A DNA stretch of 64,000 bases from an uncultured Syntrophomonadaceae bacterium (GCA_964506505.1 CAZDKY010000019.1:606-64605); one strand, 5' to 3'; shown: positions 3,759 through 64,000, numbered from the stretch's first letter. Translations and numbers: made by a program. The notes: generated by a model not told the origin, from the letters alone.

Positions 3759-4009
3759 ATATGATCAACCCCCAATCAGCTTCCCGCCGGCTATCGTCAA
3801 TCTTTCTTTCTTTACCGGTACTGATATTTCGTCCATTGAAGATCCTTCTGTCAATCACTTACTGCCACGCCTCTGCAAAAGACTCAATAAAATTTACTTA
3901 TTATTTATCATTCTTAATTGTTGCCAACAATATCGTCTTCCGTTTAATTTCAGGTGAAAGCTGCCTTTCCTGAATCACTCTCAGCACGCGGTTTTTTTAA
4001 AATGACCGG

Positions 4010-30139: not shown

Positions 30140-30167
30140 AATAAGTTAATAAGTTAATACCCAGGGT
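30140..30167 (+). repeat. 28-bp glycan-locus junction element, copy 1 (AATAAGTTAATAAGTTAATACCCAGGGT read on the plus strand)
   Basis: Exact shared motif; see the first finding. Confidence 0.9.
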
Positions 30168-32036: not shown

Positions 32037-32064
32037 ACCCTGTGTATTAACTTATTAACTTATT
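32037..32064 (-). repeat. Junction element, copy 2 (ACCCTGTGTATTAACTTATTAACTTATT on the plus strand)
   Basis: Sits 2 nt after the LCP gene stop and about 22 nt before the epimerase ATG. Confidence 0.9.
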
Positions 32065-40018: not shown

Positions 40019-40046
40019 AATAAGTTAATAAGTTAATACCCAGGGT
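40019..40046 (+). repeat. Junction element, copy 3 (same plus-strand orientation as copy 1; overlaps the last 4 codons of wzx)
   Basis: AATAAGTTAATAAGTTAATACCCAGGGTCACGTTTTTT is nearly identical to copy 1, including the flanking CGTTTTTT. Confidence 0.9.
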
Positions 40047-41565
40047 CACGTTTTTTGATCATTTTCCAGGCCTCCCGAATGCTGACCCCTTCCGAACGGC
40101 TAATAATTAGCATTACAACCGTTAGAACCGCAACCAGCACAACCATCTTCAGCAGAAAATTGATCACCGGGTCCGGCCCGTTCAAAGCAATCATGGCAAT
40201 TAACCCAACGGCAACAGGTGGAATAGCCAGTAAAGCCGCTACCGTCATTCCCGGGTAATGAACAGGCCATATCTTCCAGGAAGCAATAGCATAGCCGAGA
40301 GCAAATAGCATATACGCTGAACCAGTGGCCGCAGCTGCTCCGGCTATGCCAAAGCGAGGAATAAGCAGTGTATTCAACCCTATATTGATTACCGCGACAA
40401 GCCAGCAGGAAATCATAATATATACAGTCTTATCTTTAACCATTATCCCTACCACCGAGACATGGGCAGTGGTGAAGAAGTGAAACCCGATTGCCAGAAA
40501 AGGTATGGCCGCAAAAGCACCGTAATAGACCGGCGGCACCAGGATGAAAATAACCTCCTGGGCCAGGGCGGTAAAACCGGTCACTATAACAGCCGAACCA
40601 GCCAGGAAATAAACCATCGTCCTGCTGACAATTGCCTCGGCCCTCCTGTTTTCCTCCTCGTAGACTTTAATTGCATGCGGCAGCCATGACTGTCCGACGG
40701 CATTCTGAAGCAACATTAGCACCGCCGCCATGGAAGCAGCAATGGAATAAAGGCCAACCGCTTCCAGGGAAGCGAGGCGGGCCAGCATGATGCGGTCGGC
40801 ATTGCTGAGCAACCAGAATGCAATGTTCATGGGCACCAGGGGCAACCCGAACATCAACAGCTGCTTTAAAAAAGTCATCGAGAACCTGAACCGAAGCAGA
40901 TCGCGGACCAGCCACAGGCGGACTGGAATCATCAACACCGCTGCCGATGCCGCTCCCAGCAAAGCTCCTGTCACACCCATCTCAAAGGTGAGCACGAAAA
41001 ACACAGCCAGGATCAGAGTCAGGGCAGCAGTCATCACATTCAAAGTGGCGAAAGTCCTGGCCTGGAAACGATTTCGCAAAACCTGGGAGAGAATCAGGTT
41101 AATCATAGCCGGCGGGGCTGAAAGAAAACCGATAACCATGGCCGAACGATACTGATCTGTGCCAAGCACCCATCCTGCCAGGGTGCGGCTGAACGGCAAC
41201 GTTACAGCAATCACCACCACGCTCCAGACCGCCAGGAAAGTAAACCAGGTTGTTGTAAGAGTTTGCTTCTCCTCTTCGGTCCGGCAGCGAAAGAAATAGC
41301 GGGTATAGGCATTATCGCCGCCGAGCATGAGAATACCGGTCAGGAAAGCAACGGCAACATTGATAAAACTCCAGGCTCCATATTGGTCAGGATCAAACAG
41401 GCGGGTGAAAATGGGTGCCGAAATTATCGACATCCCTTTAATCAGCAGAGTGCCCGAGCTGTATACAGCCAGATCGGAAAATAGTTTACGGAAACTAAAG
41501 CCGGACACTGTTGCATCCCTTTCGCCGGCCCGGTCCTCCGAGTCCCTCTCCACCGATGTCTGCAA
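40033..41565 (-). CDS. Oligosaccharide flippase (Wzx / polysaccharide biosynthesis protein family)
   Basis: About 510 aa with 12-14 TM segments. Start chosen at the TTG that has a GGAGGAG RBS; the ORF track extends to 41598. Confidence 0.8.
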   Translation of the reverse strand: MQTSVERDSEDRAGERDATVSGFSFRKLFSDLAVYSSGTLLIKGMSIISAPIFTRLFDPDQYGAWSFINVAVAFLTGILMLGGDNAYTRYFFRCRTEEEKQTLTTTWFTFLAVWSVVVIAVTLPFSRTLAGWVLGTDQYRSAMVIGFLSAPPAMINLILSQVLRNRFQARTFATLNVMTAALTLILAVFFVLTFEMGVTGALLGAASAAVLMIPVRLWLVRDLLRFRFSMTFLKQLLMFGLPLVPMNIAFWLLSNADRIMLARLASLEAVGLYSIAASMAAVLMLLQNAVGQSWLPHAIKVYEEENRRAEAIVSRTMVYFLAGSAVIVTGFTALAQEVIFILVPPVYYGAFAAIPFLAIGFHFFTTAHVSVVGIMVKDKTVYIMISCWLVAVINIGLNTLLIPRFGIAGAAAATGSAYMLFALGYAIASWKIWPVHYPGMTVAALLAIPPVAVGLIAMIALNGPDPVINFLLKMVVLVAVLTVVMLIISRSEGVSIREAWKMIKKRDPGY

Positions 41566-41604
41566 ATAAAACTCCTCCCCCAAACCGCGACCCTGCAAAC
41601 TGTT

Positions 41605-41640
41605 ACCCTGTGTATTAACTTATTAACTTATTAACTTATT
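41605..41640 (-). repeat. Junction element, copy 4 (three TTAACTTA units; supplies the TAA stop of the upstream gene)
   Basis: ACCCTGTGTATTAACTTATTAACTTATTAACTTATT. Confidence 0.9.
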
Positions 41641-42313
41641 GATTGAGGATACCTTCGATTATCCGGCAGATCCTCTGCAGCCTTTTTTCAAGATCATCCA
41701 TGAACATTTTCTCAAGCTGTTTTTCACTGGCGGCATCAATCCCGGATTTTTTCTGCTCTTTCAATACCCCTGTTATATCCGGTTCCCTGTCCTCAACAAA
41801 AATATCGTCCGCTTCCACCAGTGCTGCCTTCCCGCTGTCAGCAAAGTGTCTGTACTGTCTCTCATCGGAAAAGATCAAGACGTCAACCGCTCCGACCAGT
41901 CCTTCTTCTTCCTCTAGGGGCACCTTCGCCCCTTCCGGCGAACCGTAATAAATAACCGGCACCTTTTTTCTACGGAAGTACTCGGCAAAACAACGGGCAA
42001 GAGGATCGCCTAACCAGACCAGGTCCGGATCAAAATCTTTTTCCAGCAGGCACATAATCACCTGGTTCAGGCGGCGCCAGTCGTTAAACCTGTGCAGGGC
42101 CGGCAGGGGCAAAAAATTGACCCCCGGCCGGTAGATTGTCAAATTCACCCTGACCGGTTTAAAATCAGGCAGGAGATTGCCGTTCAGTGATCCGAAGGGG
42201 CTGACCCAGACAATGTTGTTGGCGCCGGCCAGCATTTCCATGATCACAGCTTCTTCACCTGCTCCCTCCCAGGACCAGCTGCTAATGAATAATATATTCT
42301 TCCCCTCAAGCAA
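41636..42313 (-). CDS. GT-B N-terminal-domain-only protein (half glycosyltransferase), hypothetical
   Basis: 225 aa; KNILFISSWSWEGAGEEAVIMEMLAG resembles a GT4 N-domain; no C-terminal catalytic domain. Confidence 0.45.
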   Translation of the reverse strand: MLEGKNILFISSWSWEGAGEEAVIMEMLAGANNIVWVSPFGSLNGNLLPDFKPVRVNLTIYRPGVNFLPLPALHRFNDWRRLNQVIMCLLEKDFDPDLVWLGDPLARCFAEYFRRKKVPVIYYGSPEGAKVPLEEEEGLVGAVDVLIFSDERQYRHFADSGKAALVEADDIFVEDREPDITGVLKEQKKSGIDAASEKQLEKMFMDDLEKRLQRICRIIEGILNQ

Positions 42314-42323
42314 TTTAATCCCT

Positions 42324-42351
42324 ACCCTGTGTATTAACTTATTAACTTATT
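42324..42351 (-). repeat. Junction element, copy 5
   Basis: ACCCTGTGTATTAACTTATTAACTTATT. Confidence 0.9.
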
Positions 42352-42504
42352 AATTCTTTCATAAAAAAAGATACCATTTTACAGCTTATTTCGCAAAACC
42401 ACAGCTCATACATGCAGGTTTTTAACATTTTGTGAGTAATATTTAGCAATATAGTTTATTAACCAAAAATAATCTATACAGATTACTGTGACAAAGGAGC
42501 TGAA

Positions 42505-43764
42505 ATGGTCGTGGTTATGAAACATCGCGAACGTGTAAGAGCAACCCTTGCTCATGAAGAACCTGATAAAGTGCCTGTGGATTTCTGTGCTACCCATAAC
42601 AGCGGGATAAATGTGATCGCCTACAACCGGGTCAAAAAAATGCTGGGCATCAATCAACCCACCTACATGCGCGATCCCATCCCCATGCTGGCCTCTCCAG
42701 ATCTGGAAGAAAACCTCGAAACAACCAAACTTTTCGGCGGCGATATGCTGCCCCTGCACCGCCATTTGAATTTCGGGGTTCCAGCGGAAGACTGGCAGAC
42801 ATGGACTCTAAAAGACGGTTCAGAAGCCCAGGTGCCCGGAGGATTCCAGCCCCAGATCAAAGACAATGGCTCTGCCGAATTGCTCCTGTTGAATGGACTG
42901 GCCAGACTTTCCATGCCGTCCCGCGGCCACCACTTTAACCTGATCAACCGCCCCCTGGGCGCTATTGAAAACCTGGAACAGCTTGAAAACATCCTTCCCT
43001 TCCTCAGGCAGAGCGGCGCTTTCTCCATCAGCGACGAAGAGCTGCAGGTACTCGCCGCCCGCGCCTCCGATCTGCACAATAATACCGATTATGCCCTCGT
43101 GGCCACCGGTGGTCCACTTTTCTTCTCCCTTTACCAGATCAGCCAGGAACTGTTCGGCTACGAAAAATTCTTTACCTATATGGCTTCGGAACCCGAATTT
43201 ATTCACTGCTGGAATGAATTTCTAACTTCTACCTGCATCGAAAAATTGCAGAAATACTTGAGAGTGCTGGGTCCTTATCTTGATGTTATCTTGATGGGCG
43301 ATGACTACGGATTCCAGAATTCGCTCCAGATGTCGCCGGCCATGTTCCGCAATTTATTCAAACCATACCTGATCAGGGTCTGCCGGGCAGTTAAAGAAGC
43401 GGCTCCCGGGATCAAGATCCTCCTTCATTCCTGCGGCAGCATCGCACCCTTGATCCCCGATTTCATCGAAGCGGACATCGATGCCCTCAATCCGGTCCAA
43501 ATCACGGCATCGGACATGGAACCCGCCCGCCTAAAAAAAGAATACGGCCGGGAAATCACTTTCTGGGGTGGCGGAGTGCGCACACAGACCACTCTTGTCA
43601 ATGGCTCTCCCGATGATATTACCGCCGAAGTGAAGGAGCTCATTGACATTTTCAAACCCGGCGGTGGCTACATTTTCTGCCCCATCCACGATATCCAGGA
43701 AGAAGTACCCCCGGAAAAAATCATCGCCATTTACCGGGCAGCTGAAAAATATGCTTCTTACTAA
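42505..43764 (+). CDS. Uroporphyrinogen decarboxylase (URO-D)-like family protein (MtaA/CmuA-type methyltransferase fold)
   Basis: 419 aa; N-terminal ERVRATLAHEEPDKVPVD, URO-D fold. Confidence 0.75.
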   Translation: MVVVMKHRERVRATLAHEEPDKVPVDFCATHNSGINVIAYNRVKKMLGINQPTYMRDPIPMLASPDLEENLETTKLFGGDMLPLHRHLNFGVPAEDWQTWTLKDGSEAQVPGGFQPQIKDNGSAELLLLNGLARLSMPSRGHHFNLINRPLGAIENLEQLENILPFLRQSGAFSISDEELQVLAARASDLHNNTDYALVATGGPLFFSLYQISQELFGYEKFFTYMASEPEFIHCWNEFLTSTCIEKLQKYLRVLGPYLDVILMGDDYGFQNSLQMSPAMFRNLFKPYLIRVCRAVKEAAPGIKILLHSCGSIAPLIPDFIEADIDALNPVQITASDMEPARLKKEYGREITFWGGGVRTQTTLVNGSPDDITAEVKELIDIFKPGGGYIFCPIHDIQEEVPPEKIIAIYRAAEKYASY

Positions 43765-43773
43765 TTAACCTGA

Positions 43774-44817
43774 TCAATCAACTTCATCATGGAAAAGAAC
43801 CAGGGTCTTTATGTTGCCACTCCCTGTCTCTCTGAATGCTTTTTCAGTTTCTGCAGGACTTATAATGGCAGTAACCAGCGGTGAAAGGTCCATCCTGCCA
43901 CCGGTAATCATATCCACTGCTTCCCTGAATTCTCGTCCTGTTTTTCCGAAAGCAGTATTAATTTTTACTTCCCTGGTTACCAGGCTCAAAAAATTTAAGG
44001 TGACCGGCTGATAACAGATCGACGGTACCACGACCATCGACCCGGCCGCCCCGAGGCTGCAGGCCTGGGCAATTGTTTCAGCATGCCCTGCGCAATCGAA
44101 GACCAGACTCATGCCCCTGTTTTCCGTCAGATTTTCAACCTCCCTGTCAAGGTTTACTTCCAGCGGATCGAGAACCTTCTCGGCCCCCATTTTCGAAGCG
44201 GTTTCTCTCCTGAATTGGTTCGGTTCAGCAACATAAACAGAACCAGCCCCCCTGTGTTTGAGAACAGCCAGAATAACCAGGCCAATTGTTCCCGCTCCTA
44301 TAATTAACACTGGCTGTTTATGATCAAGCACAGCCCTGTTTACCGCATGCAGTCCCACGCTCAGCGGTTCGGCCAGAGCCGCCGTGGCGAGGGATCTTTG
44401 ATCCGGCAACCTGACCAGATCTTTTGCCGGCACCAGGACATATTCAGCCATGCTGCCCTGATCGGTAATCCCCAGCCGGCGCATCTCCAGACAGAGGTTA
44501 TCCTCACCCCTCAGGCAGTAACGACAGCGTCCGCAGGCTATAATATTGTTGCCTGTGACATAGTCTCCCGCCTGCCAGCCATCGACTTTTGTCCCAAGGG
44601 CGGCAATCGTTCCCGAAAACTCGTGGCCGATGGTCAGCCCAGGCTGCAGGAAACCTGTTTCATAGGCGTGCAGGTCTGAACCGCAGATGCCGCAGTATTT
44701 GACCCTGACCAGAACCTCCCCGGGCCCCGGAACCGGCACCGGCTTATCAACCAGGGCCAGACTGCGCGGGCCTTCAATGACAATTGCTTTCATAATTCTT
44801 CCTCGCTTTTTCAGCAC
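43774..44817 (-). CDS. Zn-dependent alcohol dehydrogenase (MDR; sorbitol/threonine dehydrogenase-like)
   Basis: GHEFSGTIAALG zinc motif, CGICGSD, GAGTIGL Rossmann. Confidence 0.85.
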   Translation of the reverse strand: MLKKRGRIMKAIVIEGPRSLALVDKPVPVPGPGEVLVRVKYCGICGSDLHAYETGFLQPGLTIGHEFSGTIAALGTKVDGWQAGDYVTGNNIIACGRCRYCLRGEDNLCLEMRRLGITDQGSMAEYVLVPAKDLVRLPDQRSLATAALAEPLSVGLHAVNRAVLDHKQPVLIIGAGTIGLVILAVLKHRGAGSVYVAEPNQFRRETASKMGAEKVLDPLEVNLDREVENLTENRGMSLVFDCAGHAETIAQACSLGAAGSMVVVPSICYQPVTLNFLSLVTREVKINTAFGKTGREFREAVDMITGGRMDLSPLVTAIISPAETEKAFRETGSGNIKTLVLFHDEVD

Positions 44818-44820
44818 AGA

Positions 44821-46183
44821 TTAAAAACGGCGCGGACCGATCAACCGGAACAATTTCAGCAGAACAAAGGATAAAATCATAGCTCCGGCATAAACAGCTA
44901 CTACCGCCTGCACACTCCAGCCCCACCAGAGCGGAGCATGCATCAGCAGCATGTAACTTAAGACAAATGGTGAAGCGAAGATAGCCTGGATACCAAGCTC
45001 CAGGGCCACCGGTGTTTCAAATTCGGGATCAGCAATTCGCAGCAGGAGCAGGCCCGTAGTAGCTGTGCCGGTGGCAATCCCATACATGCCCATCATTCTC
45101 TCCAGACTGTAGCCCCAGGTCCGGCGTCCTAAATAAAAGACCACCAGGGTGGTAAAAATCCCGCTGACCAGACCGATTAGCAGTATGGGCACAATATATT
45201 CCCAGATAATAACCAGCTGGATGGCCATGATCGTAGCCACAATCAGGAAGTCGACAGCCCAGCCGGTGATTCTTTTCTGCACTCCGGCATCAAGCAGGTA
45301 ATCGATCCCAATCCTGCCGATAAAGGCTTTGACCAGCAGGGCAATAACCACAGCGAAAAAGAAGAAAAAAGCCCATAAACTTTTGGCTACATCCACAGAA
45401 ATAAATTTTCCTATGGCCAGCACCAGCAGGTAGGTAAGAATGTAAACCAGACCCACCAGGGCGGCGTGAAAGGCCAGGGTATCAATGTTGCCCGAATGAG
45501 TAGTAAGTTCACCGGCCGCCTCTCTTTTGGTATCTTTCTGCATTATACCCCGCAAAATTTCCAGGGGGAGAGCCCTGGGGGTCAGGGCGGCGTAGCCCTT
45601 CCTGATGCCCCAGTTGACCAGGGGCACACCGACGAAGAAAGCAAAGGCGAAACCGAAAACGGCAAACGACAACCCCAGGGTGGCCGCATGGGCAAAACCG
45701 AATTCCTCCCAGACCTTGCCGACGGAGAGGGCCTGTCCCGGTCCCTGGGTAAAGCCGAGAGGTGACAGGAAACCGAACAATGGGTTTAAATTAAAACCCG
45801 TTGCATTGAGAAGAAAAACAATAAGACCTCCCACAATACCCTGCATGGCCATCACTACGCCGCTGACCAGACCGATCCAGAGGGGTCCCCTGATTAAAGA
45901 TTTAAAAGAATTATCGGCATTTCTTTTAATGCCTGCTGTCAAACTGAGAGAAATAAATGAAATTATGAATAGGTGATAAGCAAAGGTTTCCAGTAAATCC
46001 ACCGAAACATCGATCAACCCCGTGCTAATTAAAATCAGCCCAAGGGTGCCACCGATAAAACAGCTGGGAATGAGAAAATTTTGAAAGAACTTGATCCTGG
46101 CCCGCAATATCATTCCCACAAGAATCATTATCGCCATAATACCGAAAACAAGGATCGGTTCAAATGGAAAAGGGGTATCCATA
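44821..46183 (-). CDS. Sodium:solute symporter of the ESS/GltS-like family (substrate unknown)
   Basis: About 454 aa from the ATG at 46181-46183 (AAAGGAGA RBS); two-repeat topology. Similarity to GltS is qualitative only. Confidence 0.5.
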
Positions 46184-46258
46184 TATTGATCTCCTTTACT
46201 TTTTAATTCATTCTGAACCCATTTGCCTGTTTCGCATAATCCCGCTTTACCATGTTTC

Positions 46259-47110
46259 TCAGTAAGCCGGCCTGGCAGTAGCATTGCCCAGGCCGTAGCC
46301 GCCGGTCACATTGATTACTTCCCCGGTCAGGTAATCCGAATCGGGAGAAACAAAAAAAGCTACCGCAGCGGCAACGTCTCCCGGTTTACCCAGCCGGCCC
46401 AGGGGTGTAGCCCCGGCAATCTCCTCTTTTAGTTCAGCGGCCGTTTTACCCTTCACTCGAGCTTCCATTTCCAGACCCCACTGTTTAAGCTCCGTCTCAA
46501 TGTCCCCTGGACAGAGAGCATTGACACAGATGTTAAAGGGCGCCAGTTCTACAGCCATTGAATAGGTCAGGCCCAGGATCCCCGCCTTGGCAGCACTGTA
46601 GGCATGCATCCAGATGGCTCCGCGCCGTGCCGCCCGGGAAGAGATATTGACTATCTTGCCCCCGCCCTGTTCAATCATCAGGGGGACAACCTCGCGGCAG
46701 CATAAAAATGTACCCGTCAGATTTATGGCAAGCGTCTTTTCCCAGGCAGCCAGAGAAAACTGGGTCAGCGGTGCCGGTCCCGGCGATCCGCCGGCATTGT
46801 TGACCAAAATATCAATGCGACCCATCTTCTCTTTGGCCTCCCGCACCATGATACCCACTGATTCTTCGTCCGCCACATCGGCAAAAAGAGGAAGCGCCTT
46901 AACTCCCATCCTGCCTATCTCTTCAGCCACTGACGCCAGTTCTTCGCCGGCTCCCACTTTATAATCGGGAAACTCGGCAAAATTTCCGCCGATATCGGTA
47001 ACTACCACCGCCGCCCCCTCGAAAGCCAGGCGCCGTGCACAGACAGCCCCGATTCCTTTCTGCCGGCCGGCCCCTGTCACCAGGGCGACTTTTCCTTCCA
47101 GTCTTTTCAT
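46259..47110 (-). CDS. Short-chain dehydrogenase/reductase (SDR)
   Basis: 283 aa; TGAGRQKGIG...NNAG...YSAAK. Confidence 0.85.
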   Translation of the reverse strand: MKRLEGKVALVTGAGRQKGIGAVCARRLAFEGAAVVVTDIGGNFAEFPDYKVGAGEELASVAEEIGRMGVKALPLFADVADEESVGIMVREAKEKMGRIDILVNNAGGSPGPAPLTQFSLAAWEKTLAINLTGTFLCCREVVPLMIEQGGGKIVNISSRAARRGAIWMHAYSAAKAGILGLTYSMAVELAPFNICVNALCPGDIETELKQWGLEMEARVKGKTAAELKEEIAGATPLGRLGKPGDVAAAVAFFVSPDSDYLTGEVINVTGGYGLGNATARPAY

Positions 47111-47147
47111 AGCATCAATCCTTTCCCCCTCGAATTCTTTCCCGGGA

Positions 47148-48804
47148 TTAGTTTATCTTCCAGGGCAACTCCATACCCGAAAAACCGGTATCGGGATCGG
47201 TCCGCACATTGATTATAGACGGCTTACCGCTGGCAAAGGCTTTTTCCAAAGCCGGTTTCAGTTCGGCTATCTTTTCCACATAGAAACCCTGACCACCCAT
47301 GATCCGGGCCAGCTCATCGTAGCGTGTTGTCTGCAGCTCCACACCCACTGTCTGTTCAAAATCGCGCTTCTGACCGCGCCGGATCTGGCCCCAGCCACCG
47401 TCATTGGCAATAATGCAAACCACCGGGATGTTATGCCTGACAGCTGTATCAAACTCCATAGCCGTAAAACCGAAGGCCCCGTCACCGGTGAGGACAGTCA
47501 CCGGCCGATCCGGGTGAGCAAGTTTACCGGCCAGTCCGAAGGGCAGACCCACCCCCAGGTGGCCGAAAGCGCCGATCCAGATCAGCGAGGAAGGACTGAG
47601 GGCTTTCATAGTCAGCACGGCAAAACCGGCTATATCACCCCCGTCCACGGCCAGCATGTTTTTATCGGGCAAAATTTCGTCCAGTTCCCGGCAGAGCCTG
47701 GCCGGGTGAATCAGTTCGGCTTCCTGATCAGTCCCCTGAAGAGCCGAATCCCTGGCCGCTTCTTTCATAACCTGAATCGTCACCGGCCAGTTTTCTTCCA
47801 TCTTCATTGCTGCTCCTGCCATTTCCTCCTGCAGCTGCTGCAGGACAGCCTTAACATCGCCGATTATACCTATTTCCACCGGTCGGTTCTGGCCCATTTC
47901 GGAAGGTTCAATATCAACCTGGATCGTTTTAGTAGACATTTTTAAAAGCGGCGGCCTCCCGTATCCGACCGTCCAATCCAATCTCGTTCCCAGGATCAAC
48001 ACGACATCGGCCTGCATAAGGCCAATGGGGAAAAAACCGCCGGCCAGGGGATGATTTTCCGGAAAACAACCCCGCCCCATGTTGCGGGTATAGACAGGGA
48101 TACCCGTCGATTCGGCAAACTGGCGCAGCTCGACAGCCGCTCCGGACCAGAAAGCACCGCTTCCTGCCAGGATGACAGGATGTTCCGCTTCCCTGAGCAT
48201 GGTAGCGGCGAGGGTTATATCCTTGCTATCAGCACAGGGCCTGCTTTCGCAGTAATAGGCTGAAGGATATCGCACTTTGGTTCCGGAAACATCCTCGCCC
48301 ACCAGGTCCACCGGTATCTCGAGAAAGACAGGACCGGGCCGTCCGCTGACGGCCTGACGAAAAGCTGCAGCTACATACTCCGGGATCCTCTCAGCCTGGT
48401 AAACCTGACGCGCCCACTTGGTCAGGGGCCGCATCAGCTCAACCTGGTCAATATCCTGCATCGCTCCAATATCCCTACGGGCCAGCGAACTTCGACCGCC
48501 GATTAACACCAGGGGCACACCGCTCTGACTGGCCACTGCCATCCCCGGCAGGGCATTAACCACCCCCGGGCCGGCCGTAACCGCCGCCACCCCGGGCTTA
48601 CCCGTATAGCGGGCCCATCCCTCTGCCATATGCACCGCCGCCTGCTCGTGCCGGGTATCGATGATGCGGATATCCCTATTCCGGCAGCCATTGTAGATAG
48701 GATTAATATGCCCCCCGCTCAGACTGAAGATTAACTCCACCCCTTCACGCTTCAGCATCTCCGCCACCAGGTCACCACCCAGCAGCTTCTGTTCTTCCGC
48801 CAAT
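47148..48804 (-). CDS. Thiamine-diphosphate-dependent enzyme, acetolactate-synthase-like (YerE-like carboligase is one possibility)
   Basis: About 552 aa; TPP Pyr, central and PP domains; GDGAFGFTAMEFDTAVRHNIPVVCIIANDGGWG ThDP-binding motif. Start chosen at the TTG that has a GGAGG RBS; the ORF track extends to 48830. Confidence 0.8.
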
Positions 48805-48838
48805 GAAAACCTCCCCTTTCCAAAAATCAAAAACTCTA

Positions 48839-48865
48839 TCCTGTGTATTAACTTATTAACTTATT
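48839..48865 (-). repeat. Junction element, copy 6 (1-nt deletion variant ATCTGTGTATTAACTTATTAACTTATT)
   Basis: Located 8 nt after the CapF-like gene stop and about 35 nt before the ThDP enzyme start. Confidence 0.85.
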
Positions 48866-48873
48866 GAATTTTG

Positions 48874-49614
48874 CTACAAATAGCTCAGGTAAGTTTGATA
48901 AAGTTTCGCCGCAAATTTATCCGTGGCTGTAAATTCCTCACCCCTCCTGACCCTTTCCCTGAAATCGTAGAGCATCCCAGCCAGCTCCCCGAGGGTAACC
49001 CGGTATTCCAGATCTTCCGGCAGGCGGTAAAAACCATCCGGGTCTGGTTCTACACTGCCGTGCAGCTGTTGTAAAAAAGATTCTATGACGTCATCGATAT
49101 AATACAGGTGCATCTCTCGATCCGGATCGCTGATGACGATGGGCAAATCCCGGGCAATGTTGTAGCAAAATGTGGCTACCACCGAGTGGCTGTTCGGCCG
49201 GGCGTAACGGCCAAAGGTATTGGTTAGACGATAGATTATCGCCTTCCCCCCGCTACCTGTGGCATGCTCCCGCACCAGCTTTTCTGCCGCCCTCTTGCTC
49301 CTGCCGTAGGCGCTATCATCGACAGCCTGGATCGATGAGGTGAGCAAAACAGGGCAGCTGTTGCCGTGTTTTTTTAAATGGGCCAGCACATCGGCCAGGA
49401 ACTGCCGGTTGACCCGGTCAAACTCAGCATCGTCACCGGGACGGTGCACCGCGGCCAGGTGAAATAGAAAATCACAGCCGACCGTGTAATCTCGCAGAAG
49501 TCGTGGATCATCTGCACTGTTAAACTTAAACACGGTATGCCCTTCTTCCTCTTCCAGGGCTTTAACCAGGTTGCGGCCGATAAAACCTCCGGCACCGATT
49601 ATCAGTATATTCAT
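48874..49614 (-). CDS. NAD-dependent epimerase/dehydratase, CapF/WbjC-like reductase lacking the C-terminal cupin domain
   Basis: 246 aa; MNILIIGAGGFIGRNLV; immediately downstream of a CapE/FnlA-like gene. Confidence 0.65.
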   Translation of the reverse strand: MNILIIGAGGFIGRNLVKALEEEEGHTVFKFNSADDPRLLRDYTVGCDFLFHLAAVHRPGDDAEFDRVNRQFLADVLAHLKKHGNSCPVLLTSSIQAVDDSAYGRSKRAAEKLVREHATGSGGKAIIYRLTNTFGRYARPNSHSVVATFCYNIARDLPIVISDPDREMHLYYIDDVIESFLQQLHGSVEPDPDGFYRLPEDLEYRVTLGELAGMLYDFRERVRRGEEFTATDKFAAKLYQTYLSYL

Positions 49615-49620
49615 CGCCGC

Positions 49621-50646
49621 CTACCAGCCTTTCCATGAAGCCAGTTCTTCCTGTATGTAAAGCAAGCCCAGCAGCTTCTCTTTCAGTTCGGCAGGGCTCA
49701 TGATCTGCGTATTATTGGAATTGTATTCCACCGCCCGGGTAAACTTTTCAGATCCCTTTTCAAAATACAGGGCATAGTTAAGGTCCCGGTTGTCGGCCGG
49801 AACCCGGTAAAAATTACCCAGATCGACAGCCTTGGCCGACTCCTCCCTGGTCAGCAGCACTTCATAGACCTTTTCCCCGTGGCGGGTGCCGATTACATCA
49901 ATCTTATTGTCGGCTCCGAATATTTCTTTCACCGCTGCAGCCAGTTCCCCGATATAGCAGGAACTGGCCTTTTGGACCAGGAGATCGCCGCTTTCTCCAT
50001 GTTCGAAGGCATAGAGGATCAGGTTAACTGCCTCATCCATACTCATCATGAAGCGAGTCATCTCCGGATCGGTGACAGTGATATTCACCCCGCTCTTGAT
50101 CTGCTCGACAAAAAGGGGAATCACCGAACCGCGCGAGCACATCACGTTGCCATAGCGAACACCGCAAATCAATGTTTTCTCTGCCCTTACTGTCCTTGAC
50201 TTGGCGATAAACACCTTCTCCATCATCGCTTTGGAAATACCCATAGCGTTAACCGGATAAGCGGCCTTGTCAGTGGAAAGGCAGATCACCTTCCGCACCC
50301 CTGCCTCGATGGCAGCCGTTAAGACATTATCCGTGCCTATTACATTCGTATTCACCGCTTCCAGGGGGAAAAATTCACAGGAGGGCACCTGTTTCAGAGC
50401 AGCAGCATGGAAAATATAATCAACTCCATGCAGGGCATTTCTGACACTCTGCAGATCCCTGACATTGCCCAAATAAAACTTAAGGTTACTGCAGGCAAAT
50501 TTTTTGCGCATATCGTCCTGTTTTTTTTCGTCGCGGGAAAAAATGCGGATTTCACCTATGTCGCTTCCCATGAACCGTTCAAGCACGGCATTGCCGAAAC
50601 TACCGGTCCCTCCTGTAATAAGCAGTGTTTTGTCTTTGAACATCAA
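49621..50646 (-). CDS. UDP-N-acetylglucosamine 4,6-dehydratase / 5-epimerase (CapE/FnlA/WbjB-like)
   Basis: 341 aa; MMFKDKTLLITGGTGSFGNAV...EIRIFSRDEKKQDDMRKKF matches the CapE/FnlA N-terminus. Confidence 0.85.
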   Translation of the reverse strand: MMFKDKTLLITGGTGSFGNAVLERFMGSDIGEIRIFSRDEKKQDDMRKKFACSNLKFYLGNVRDLQSVRNALHGVDYIFHAAALKQVPSCEFFPLEAVNTNVIGTDNVLTAAIEAGVRKVICLSTDKAAYPVNAMGISKAMMEKVFIAKSRTVRAEKTLICGVRYGNVMCSRGSVIPLFVEQIKSGVNITVTDPEMTRFMMSMDEAVNLILYAFEHGESGDLLVQKASSCYIGELAAAVKEIFGADNKIDVIGTRHGEKVYEVLLTREESAKAVDLGNFYRVPADNRDLNYALYFEKGSEKFTRAVEYNSNNTQIMSPAELKEKLLGLLYIQEELASWKGW

Positions 50647-50677: not shown

Positions 50678-50719
50678 CAAAAAAGCTACCCTGTGTATCA
50701 AAAAAGCTACCCTGTGTAT
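50678..50719 (-). repeat. Tandem 21-bp duplication (CAAAAAAGCTACCCTGTGTAT x2) abutting junction-element copy 7
   Basis: Exact tandem repeat seen in the sequence. Confidence 0.8.
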
Positions 50720-62941: not shown

Positions 62942-64000
62942 ATTGCCTTTTTCCCCATCGACTAAAAGAACTTTTAGCGCCGCCTTAACTGCGGCAATTT
63001 TGCTGTTCCTCCTGTTCAATCTTTGCGGGTGTACTCCAGAACCGATTTACAATGGTGAATTAAAAGAAGGCCAGCCGCACGGTTTCGGCACCCTTAAACA
63101 CCCGAACGGGGCTTATTATGCCGGACAGTTTGCAGAAGGCCTGCGCCACGGCCGCGGCACCTGGATCCACCCCGATGGCATCCGCTACGCCGGAGAGTGG
63201 CAGGAAGACCTATATCACGGACGGGGCATCCTTATTACAAACGGCCAGCAGTACACAGGCCGCTGGAACGAGGGAGTGAAACAGGGCCCAGGCGTTCAGC
63301 TGTGGGCAGACGGCCGGATCTACAGGGGCAACTGGCACGACAATCGACCCCAGGGATATGGAATCATGGAAAAACCGGACGGCTCCATTTACCGCGGATA
63401 CTGGCAGGACGGCTGCCGCCAGGGCGAAGGAACCGCCTTTTACCCCGACGGCTCCCGCTACAGCGGCCGGTGGGAAAAAGATAACCGCCACGGCTACGGA
63501 CGGTTAATTAAGGCAGACGGCACAACATATGAAGGGGAGTGGATTGACAACCGCCTGGAGGGTGAAGGGATCCTGATCGACACCGACGGCACTGCGGTCA
63601 GCGTTATCTGGGCCGATAACGAACTGCATAAAATACCGGTCGAAGGTATTGAGCTTGACTCTGAAAACCTTACCCTGTTCGCCGGGGAAGAGGAAGTTCT
63701 TTTAACAGCCACAATCCTGCCGGCTGAAGCAACCACCAGGGAAATCACCTGGACCAGCAGCAATCCCGATGTGGCCACCGTGACAGACGGCCTGGTGAAA
63801 CCTCTATCACCCGGTACCTCCCTGATTACCGCCACCACCGCGAATGGCGGCTTCACCGCCGCCTGCGAGGTAACTGTTCACGAAATAGAAATCAGGGTCA
63901 GCGGCATTGAGCTTGATCGAACCTCTCTCAACCTGCGGATCGAGGAAACAGCAATCCTCATTGCTGAGATTACGCCATACGATGCCCTGGATCAGACCAT
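62942..64000 (+). CDS. Surface lipoprotein with MORN repeats and Big_2 Ig-like domains (3'-partial)
   Basis: TTG start with an AAAGGAGA RBS; the signal peptide ends in the lipobox LCGC; tandem MORN repeats (YxGxWxxGxxHGxG) followed by Big_2-like segments. Absent from the ORF track because the start is not ATG. Confidence 0.7.

Follow-up and report, generated by a model that had tools for sequence, protein, structure and literature searches.

Gene content and boundaries of the block

The DNA analysed here, a stretch of 64,000 nucleotides (nt) from an uncultured Syntrophomonadaceae bacterium (GCA_964506505.1, CAZDKY010000019.1:606-64605; hereafter the window), carries at positions 42352-48838 a block of five genes, among them those of a thiamine diphosphate (ThDP)-dependent enzyme and a short-chain dehydrogenase/reductase (SDR), and this block lies inside a Gram-positive-type cell-wall glycopolymer locus at about 30-57.5 kb in the window. 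Two Mono Lake assemblies in the public databases, both of 'Firmicutes bacterium ML8_F2', match the window at ~99.6-99.8% identity (contig LQBG01000054.1 of GCA_002030005.1, and JGI 3300001335). Comparison with loci of relatives, given below as L numbers, shows that the block moves as a unit and exists outside glycan loci, and that the glycan locus exists without it.

Four of the five genes are on the minus strand. Read in the direction of transcription, they encode the ThDP enzyme (47148-48803, 551 aa; TPP_enzyme_N/M/C, E values of 1e-38 to 1e-32), whose likely start is a TTG codon after the ribosome-binding site GGAAAGGGGAGG; a classical SDR (46259-47110, 283 aa; adh_short, and adh_short_C2 at 1e-56); a GltS/ESS-like secondary transporter (44821-46182, 453 aa; Glt_symporter PF03616, E value of 1.7e-11, 43.9 bits against a cutoff of 26); and a Zn-dependent medium-chain dehydrogenase of the threonine/polyol dehydrogenase type (Zn-ADH; 43774-44793, 339 aa; ADH_N and ADH_zinc_N). 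The fifth gene, on the plus strand, encodes a protein with the uroporphyrinogen decarboxylase (URO-D)/MtaA fold (42505-43764, 419 aa; PF01208, E value of 2.7e-23) and converges with the Zn-ADH gene across a 9-nt gap. Its non-coding leader (42352-42504, plus strand) aligns with the corresponding sequences of L014 and L015, and not with those of L008, L019, and L004. The GC content of the block, 0.48-0.56, is inside the window's own range. Gene calls and profile matches bear out the five genes, with their places, orientations, and the convergent URO-D-fold gene, as described in an earlier note made from the sequence alone.

The interval exactly fills the space separating two direct copies of a 27-nt repeat, in agreement with the same note, which had described the block as bracketed by junction elements 5 and 6. 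Copy 5 (42325-42351, plus strand, CCCTGTGTATTAACTTATTAACTTATT) forms the lower boundary and lies 11 nt upstream, in the minus sense, of the start of p225, a flanking glycan-locus gene. Copy 6 (48839-48865, plus strand, TCCTGTGTATTAACTTATTAACTTATT) forms the upper boundary, between the ribosome-binding site of the ThDP gene and the stop codon of FnlB-short, which encodes a short FnlB/WbcJ-like reductase. A CapE/FnlA-like gene had been placed immediately upstream of the block; such a gene is present, but it is one gene further away and the FnlB/WbcJ-like reductase gene is the immediate neighbor.

This neighborhood had suggested a YerE/YerF-like route, in which the UDP-4-keto-6-deoxy-HexNAc produced by FnlA would receive an acyl branch of two or more carbons from the ThDP enzyme and the SDR would reduce the branch carbonyl. 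The resemblance to yersiniose biosynthesis lies in the order of the genes, with a ThDP enzyme and then a reductase encoded in a surface-glycan locus, two genes downstream of an FnlA-type 4,6-dehydratase gene and on the same strand, an arrangement retained in three genomes. Within the decarboxylase superfamily, YerE-like ThDP enzymes make up a separate subclass, which branches CDP-4-keto-3,6-dideoxy sugars; they are known to branch 4-keto deoxy sugars in cell-surface glycans and have reported structures (PMC12247030).

The block in related genomes

In L014 and L015/L016, whose ThDP enzymes are 98% and 90% identical to that of the window, the block has FnlB-short on one side and the p225 homolog on the other, with the repeat at its flanks, as in the window; L014 and L015 both have copy 5 at the junction where the window has it. 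Away from any glycan gene, the full set of five, its order unchanged, is present in L008 (ThDP enzyme 80% identical), L004/L017 (75%), and L019 and L020 (both 72%), and the URO-D gene is convergent in all of these except L020. At each of these sites, the block is placed after a Na_sulph_symp/CitMHS (DASS) transporter gene, and a divergent LysR regulator gene is additionally found in L004/L017 and L020. The further neighbors in L004/L017 and L008 are UvrD-type helicases, PGI, DUF2804, RlmL, and a MORN/DUF4282 gene, and those in L019 and L020 differ. In L022 (69%), a short contig, only the ThDP, SDR, and GltS-like genes are visible, and in L018 (74%) an APC amino-acid permease replaces the GltS-like gene and the ADH. 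The repeat is absent from every one of these non-glycan block loci (L004/L017, L008, L018, L019, L020, and L022).

The whole block is thus conserved elsewhere as an operon, its gene order being that of the window in L004/L017, L008, L019, and L020, and such conservation is part of what the earlier note had itself named as telling against sugar branching. The transporter and the ADH, which the note had considered unfit for that chemistry, indeed travel with the block outside glycan loci, as does the URO-D-like gene, and no sugar genes accompany the ThDP-SDR pair in the relatives at 69-80% identity.

The reverse situation is found in L119, another relative with a syntenic glycan locus in which 16 genes show 58-84% amino acid identity to those of the window. 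Here FnlB-short is followed after ~30 nt by the p225 homolog and then by GT1; the set of glycosyltransferases is the same as in the window, but the locus contains neither the block, and hence no ThDP-SDR pair, nor the repeat. L120 likewise has FnlA, FnlB-short, and Wzx and no block. Because of L119 and the non-glycan relatives, the glycan locus can be regarded as complete without the block and the block as complete without the glycan locus. A YerE-like gene would be expected to stay with 4-keto-deoxyhexose (nucleotide-sugar) biosynthesis genes across genomes; the window's ThDP orthologues at 69-80% identity do not, and the glycan loci of L119 and L120 lack the gene.

In more distant relatives, only parts of the arrangement are found. 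The SDR gene is directly downstream of ThDP orthologues down to 61% identity (L013 and L021), where a gene of the acetyl-CoA hydrolase/transferase family lies upstream of the ThDP gene. Zn-ADH genes abut the ThDP orthologues of 56-57% identity in Desulfobacterota (L024 and L026). In Chloroflexi (L012, L027, L029-L032, L036, and L037), the two enzymes are fused into proteins of 841-845 aa with the SDR at the N-terminus and a ThDP part that is 44-48% identical to the window enzyme; the surroundings, with recurring TetR, MFS_2, PLP-decarboxylase-like, and M20-peptidase genes, are an uncharacterised conserved cluster. Since identity between the SDR of the window and the fused one reaches only 28-34%, the fusion supports a general partnership of dehydrogenase and ThDP enzyme and not the exact pair. 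Genes for PLP-decarboxylase-like proteins occur near the ThDP relatives in nine loci, including L019.

Divergence and history of the block

All five block genes have dN/dS ratios of 0.04-0.26 in comparisons with L014 and L015, and are kept intact under purifying selection in the glycan-embedded lineage. Against L014, the dS of the block genes is 0.15-0.21, compared with 0.81-0.86 for FnlA and FnlB-short, 0.47 for p225, and 0.25 for Wzx. Because dS jumps across copy 6, the locus is taken as a recombination mosaic with a breakpoint at or near this copy. The three embedded genomes share conserved non-coding leaders beside the repeat, which are not alignable with those of the non-glycan relatives.

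The embedded blocks lack the DASS transporter and LysR genes that accompany the non-glycan versions, so the usual upstream transporter and regulator were lost on relocation. None of the ancestral flank genes UvrD, PGI, DUF2804, RlmL, and DASS is present in the window. The identity of block orthologues declines smoothly through related metagenome-assembled genomes (MAGs) labelled Syntrophomonadaceae; this decay and the native-like GC content make a move within the lineage more likely than acquisition from a distant donor, and suggest that the block is lineage-native and relocated rather than foreign. The idea of a horizontally inserted small-molecule island at a junction element was therefore right about an island at the repeat and probably wrong about a foreign source.

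A MORN-repeat gene at 63048-63725 in the window shows 32-43% identity, over the repeats, to the MORN/DUF4282 gene that flanks the non-glycan blocks. The likeness is probably at the repeat level only, the two genes being unrelated.

The ThDP-dependent enzyme

The best PDB matches of the ThDP enzyme, over its full length, are structures of HACL/S (2-hydroxyacyl-CoA lyase/synthase) and of OXC (oxalyl-CoA decarboxylase), such as 8vzc, 6xn8, and 2c31, with 338 bits. Lower scores were obtained with BbmA (287 bits) and benzaldehyde lyase (BAL; 262 bits), followed by acetolactate synthases (ALS; ≤230 bits, natural enzymes ≤211), glyoxylate carboligase (194 bits), and cyclohexane-1,2-dione hydrolase (165 bits). 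On these scores, the enzyme falls in the OXC/HACL/BAL branch and not in the ALS branch. The placement of YerE is ALS-like, and no YerE-like name appears among the 60 best PDB matches, in a comparison that was made without a YerE sequence; on that comparison, the window enzyme probably belongs to a branch other than that of YerE.

No curated family could be assigned. Both top NCBIfam models stayed below cutoff, PRK05858 with 464 of the required 587 bits and NF058623 (2-hydroxyacyl-CoA lyase) with 386 of 600; neither the OXC model NF006721 (331 bits against 557) nor the Xsc models TIGR03457 (282.5 against 676) and NF005713 (293.6 against 620) were reached, and IolD was outside the 25 best families. 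Membership in Xsc, IolD, AlsS, ALS, or glyoxylate carboligase was rejected, all being sub-cutoff, and the clear orthology to Xsc or IolD that would have pointed to a named catabolic family was not found. The low or sub-cutoff scores likewise set the window enzyme apart from cyclohexane-1,2-dione hydrolase, IolD, and Xsc as known systems.

The key residues of HACL/S, numbered as in ApbHACL/S, are E50, two arginines of the ADP site (R156 and R276), and two of the acyl-CoA site (R260 and R400) (PMC11271303). The window enzyme shares the three-domain layout of HACL/S and OXC and retains the catalytic glutamate (Glu53), the GDG...ND ThDP motif (GDG...N(D) in the family), and both ADP-site arginines (Arg155 and Arg274). 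In contrast, the positions of the two acyl-CoA-binding arginines are occupied by Phe258 and Val396. The same pattern was observed in 17 aligned family members of 47-100% identity, in which the ADP-site arginines are invariant and the acyl-CoA positions are never basic, being F/Y/M/P at the first and V/N/M/L/I/S at the second. The block, unlike the HACL/S and OXC systems, encodes no CoA ligase or transferase, and BAL, which belongs to the same branch, needs no CoA. We read the window enzyme as a putative CoA-independent offshoot of the OXC/HACL/BAL branch that would be unable to bind acyl-CoA in the manner of HACL.

The dehydrogenases, the transporter and the URO-D/MtaA-fold protein

The best NCBIfam and PDB matches of the SDR are all generic, FabG-like or glucose-dehydrogenase-like, and by Pfam it is a classical FabG-like SDR and not of the extended nucleotide-sugar type, which speaks against a YerF-like role. 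The Zn-ADH carries the structural-zinc motif C-x2-C-x2-C-x7-C; it scores 218 bits against Tdh and 213 bits against IolM, both below cutoff, and its best PDB matches are 5vm2 and Tdh structures.

The GltS-like transporter has a length of 453 aa in all relatives. At 45132-45183 and 45478-45505, within its gene, the window differs from both public assemblies, the window's own gene being intact: the JGI contig (L002) lacks 52 nt and its called product has 435 aa instead of 453, and the NCBI MAG contig (L001) has a run of N. This discrepancy reflects either population heterogeneity or assembly error.

The MtaA-type NCBIfam matches of the URO-D-like protein are weak (35-56 bits against cutoffs of 235-400). 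An AlphaFold (AF2) model computed from 35 homologs had a pLDDT of 93.5, and a Foldseek search with this model found Methanosarcina mazei MtaA (4ay8/4ay7) first (~1e-14), followed by UROD (1e-11 or weaker). The protein would thus share the TIM-barrel fold of uroporphyrinogen decarboxylase and of the methylcobamide:coenzyme M methyltransferases MtaA and MtbA. In the alignment of homologs, His308 and His395 are invariant and Cys310 is near-invariant, forming an HxC motif, and the segment LLHSCG aligns with the HxC of the zinc site of MtaA in 4ay7. The differences from MtaA are equally clear: the identity to the URO-D-like protein is 18%, the third ligand position of MtaA, PGCG, is PGGG, the model contains an extra β-rich insert (~residues 81-137), and no corrinoid-protein gene lies near the URO-D-like gene in any context seen, in the window or in the loci of relatives. 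The invariant His395 could substitute for the absent third cysteine ligand, judging from its conservation. Two other contexts of URO-D homologs were seen. In L099, a 63% homolog adjoins a 35% GltS-like homolog, genes of an ABC system, and an M20-peptidase gene, in a neighborhood that lacks ThDP and SDR genes, and another homolog of 50% identity sits amid FGGY kinase, SDR, GFO/IDH, and GH3 genes. The URO-D-like protein appears to be connected with the compound that is imported. In the literature, searches for clusters that combine URO-D and thiamine, for 'uroporphyrinogen decarboxylase-like', and for BbmA gave nothing relevant to name a pathway.

The surrounding glycan locus

The glycan locus around the block comprises genes for a UDP-sugar dehydrogenase, GT4, a nucleotidyltransferase, an epimerase, two GT2, FnlA, and FnlB-short, then the block and p225, followed by Wzx, GT1, GT2, a priming Bac_transf, and an amine-oxidase-like flavoprotein; two LCP ligases, a further epimerase, and an undecaprenyl-phosphate-translocase-like protein are also encoded. 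Neither the block nor the sequence next to it encodes an acyl-, amido-, or alkyl-transferase.

The FnlA/CapE-like UDP-GlcNAc 4,6-dehydratase/5-epimerase gene (49621-50646, minus strand) matches Polysacc_synt_2 (5e-101) and scores 515 bits with TIGR04130, below the cutoff of 730. FnlB-short (48874-49614, minus strand), the flanking glycan gene, encodes a FnlB/WbcJ-like UDP-2-acetamido-2,6-dideoxy-hexul-4-ose reductase of 246 aa that consists of the SDR domain only; with NF047837, it scores 212.7 bits (below the cutoff of 500) over profile positions 1-242 of 372. Truncation of this gene by an insertion was ruled out, because a length of 243-264 aa is shared by 119 of its 120 best homologs and the gene is intact in block-free loci. 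Many of these homologs carry the JGI annotation UDP-2-acetamido-2,6-beta-L-arabino-hexul-4-ose reductase. Situated between FnlA and the block, FnlB-short can consume the keto-sugar of FnlA, and FnlA followed by a short 4-reductase presumably resembles the known routes to sugars of the UDP-L-RhaNAc/L-QuiNAc type. This 4-keto reductase, of a family that is widespread on its own, comes directly after FnlA and counts against sugar branching by the block. The upstream sugar is UDP-HexNAc-derived and has its own reductase, unlike the CDP-3,6-dideoxy-4-keto sugar of the YerE/YerF system.

On the other side of the block, p225 (41636-42313, minus strand) encodes 225 aa with no Pfam family match. The gene is fast-evolving, with 66-76% amino acid identity and a dN/dS of 0.22-0.27 against L014 and L015. 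Its homolog in the block-free L119 (8770-9225), next to FnlB-short, is 43% identical. The product may be an uncharacterised component of the glycan locus.

The junction repeat

The repeat that bounds the block occurs in eight copies in the window, where none is expected by chance. In the repeat, two or three TTAACTTA units come after a head that is nearly palindromic, ACCCWGKGT; the repeat is located directly behind a gene's stop codon, 10-60 nt ahead of the next start. Six copies face one way and those at 30140 and 40019 are inverted. The inverted pair 40019-40045 and 41606-41632 brackets wzx (40033-41598), and the pair 30140-30166 and 32038-32064 brackets two genes at 30.2-32.0 kb, which encode the epimerase and the undecaprenyl-phosphate-translocase-like protein. 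In the repeat-free L119, wzx is placed elsewhere, between GT2 and FnlA, and the repeat-bounded segments therefore look like rearranged cassettes. Two irregularities were observed among the copies: the copy at 41606 has one extra TTAACTTA unit, and at 50678-50719, next to copy 7 and upstream of FnlA, CAAAAAAGCTACCCTGTGTAT (repeat head and flank) is tandemly duplicated.

A 21-mer of the repeat was found in 19 metagenome contigs (L100-L118), mostly from soda lakes, where ACCCTGG, ACACTGT, or ACACAGT precedes the core GTATTAACTTATTAACTTATT, for example at 11748 in L104, at 9408 and 13908 in L106, and at 3791/3826 in L101. These copies sometimes form facing inverted pairs ~14 nt apart, and some lie outside glycan loci, for example after a riboflavin-type operon (by our own reading of the open reading frames) and after a gene of 1166 aa. 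Promoter or terminator function found no support, as sigma-70-like and terminator-like sites occur in the repeat at chance level only, and no Rfam family matched in the window or in four relatives. Transcription of the minus-strand operon from copy 6, as given in the earlier note, is therefore at most putative. That the repeat is part of the block was also ruled out, because it is absent wherever the block lies outside the glycan locus and present at other junctions of the locus and on unrelated contigs. It behaves as a dispersed intergenic element that marks rearrangement joints here.

Interpretation of the block

Taken together, we favor, with a probability of about 0.72, the reading that the block is a self-contained five-gene cassette for the uptake and conversion of a small molecule, native to anaerobic soda-lake Firmicutes, which was relocated in the ML8_F2 sub-lineage into the glycopolymer locus at a repeat-marked junction and does not act on the nucleotide-sugar of FnlA. 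In such a cassette, the GltS-like symporter would import a hydroxylated solute of anionic or amino-acid-like character. Its secondary hydroxyls would be oxidised by the SDR and the Zn-ADH (or the resulting aldehyde reduced), and the ThDP enzyme would cut the C-C bond beside the new carbonyl, acting as a BAL-like acyloin/dicarbonyl lyase or as a 2-oxo-acid decarboxylase. The URO-D/MtaA-fold protein, with its His-x-Cys...His site, may act on the same compound in a further step, a decarboxylation or alkyl transfer assisted by metal. A hydroxylated substrate of the amino-acid or organic-acid type is suggested by the PLP-decarboxylase-like genes, by the APC permease found in L018, and by the likeness of the carrier to GltS and of the ADH to threonine dehydrogenase. 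In the vicinal-diol routes of cyclohexane-1,2-dione hydrolase and IolD, dehydrogenases create a carbonyl next to a hydroxyl or carbonyl and a ThDP enzyme cuts the bond between them, which fits the association of the ThDP enzyme with the SDR and the Zn-ADH.

Several points weigh against this assignment. No family match above a curated cutoff names the reaction or the substrate. The block has been retained in the glycan locus, co-oriented and tightly spaced, in three genomes with dS values up to ~0.9, so a functional link to the glycan is possible. Acetyl-CoA-hydrolase/transferase-family genes lie beside the ThDP orthologues of 61-64% identity and CoA_transf_3 genes beside some of those of 40-48%, and these neighbors make CoA chemistry possible in parts of the ThDP family despite the missing arginines. 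The SDR-ThDP fusion of Chloroflexi is weak evidence for the pair in the window, and the catabolic rather than biosynthetic direction is one that we infer from the transporters and LysR only.

Among the alternatives, it is unlikely, though conceivable, that the relocated cassette has been co-opted and converts an imported small molecule into a non-carbohydrate substituent or precursor, which another enzyme of the locus attaches to the polymer. The block has lost DASS and LysR and gained the same repeat-containing leader as the neighboring glycan genes, and it is intact at the same position while the locus diverged, both of which speak for co-option. However, the transferase that would attach such a group is missing from the block and its vicinity, the block-free L119 has the same glycosyltransferases, and selection on an independent metabolic trait explains the retention equally well. 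We consider it somewhat less probable still that the cassette is biosynthetic, with a ThDP carboligase making an acyloin-type metabolite that the dehydrogenases reduce and the transporter exports. Enzymes of this branch (BAL, HACS, and formolase) form as well as cleave C-C bonds, reversibility being stated for HACL/S (PMC11271303), and two reductase-type enzymes follow the ThDP gene; but the LysR regulator and the two or three alternative uptake-type transporters (DASS, GltS-like, APC, and MFS_2) found with the orthologues form the usual pattern of inducible utilisation, and no precursor-supplying genes are present. The YerE/YerF-like branching of the FnlA keto-sugar is highly improbable and is largely refuted by the comparators, given a block that is portable away from sugar genes and absent from L119, a ThDP enzyme nearer to OXC/HACL/BAL, a classical SDR, a reductase of its own after FnlA, and a cassette that adds a transporter, an ADH, and a URO-D-like gene to the YerE/YerF pair.

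A bolder version of the uptake-and-conversion reading, which we regard as unlikely, is that the ThDP-SDR core, the URO-D/MtaA-fold zinc protein, and the GltS-like carrier make up an undescribed anaerobic pathway for a soda-lake solute of the hydroxylated amino-acid or organic-acid type, in which a new CoA-independent OXC/HACL offshoot would cleave the C-C bond, and that this pathway was captured in ML8_F2 under the control of the glycan locus. If true, the capture would couple polymer synthesis to the availability of the solute or supply a substituent.

The comparison removes a tempting annotation, as a ThDP enzyme and a reductase beside a 4,6-dehydratase are, alone, no sign of a branched sugar. 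It provides a clear case in which a metabolic cassette moved into a surface-glycan locus, at a junction marked by a repeat, and for which 'empty site' and 'elsewhere' comparators are both available. The ThDP enzyme also represents an uncharacterised subfamily, widespread in anaerobic Firmicutes, Chloroflexi, and Desulfobacterota, which appears to have kept the ADP site of OXC/HACL and lost CoA binding, habitually has dehydrogenase partners, and would be a reasonable target for enzyme discovery.

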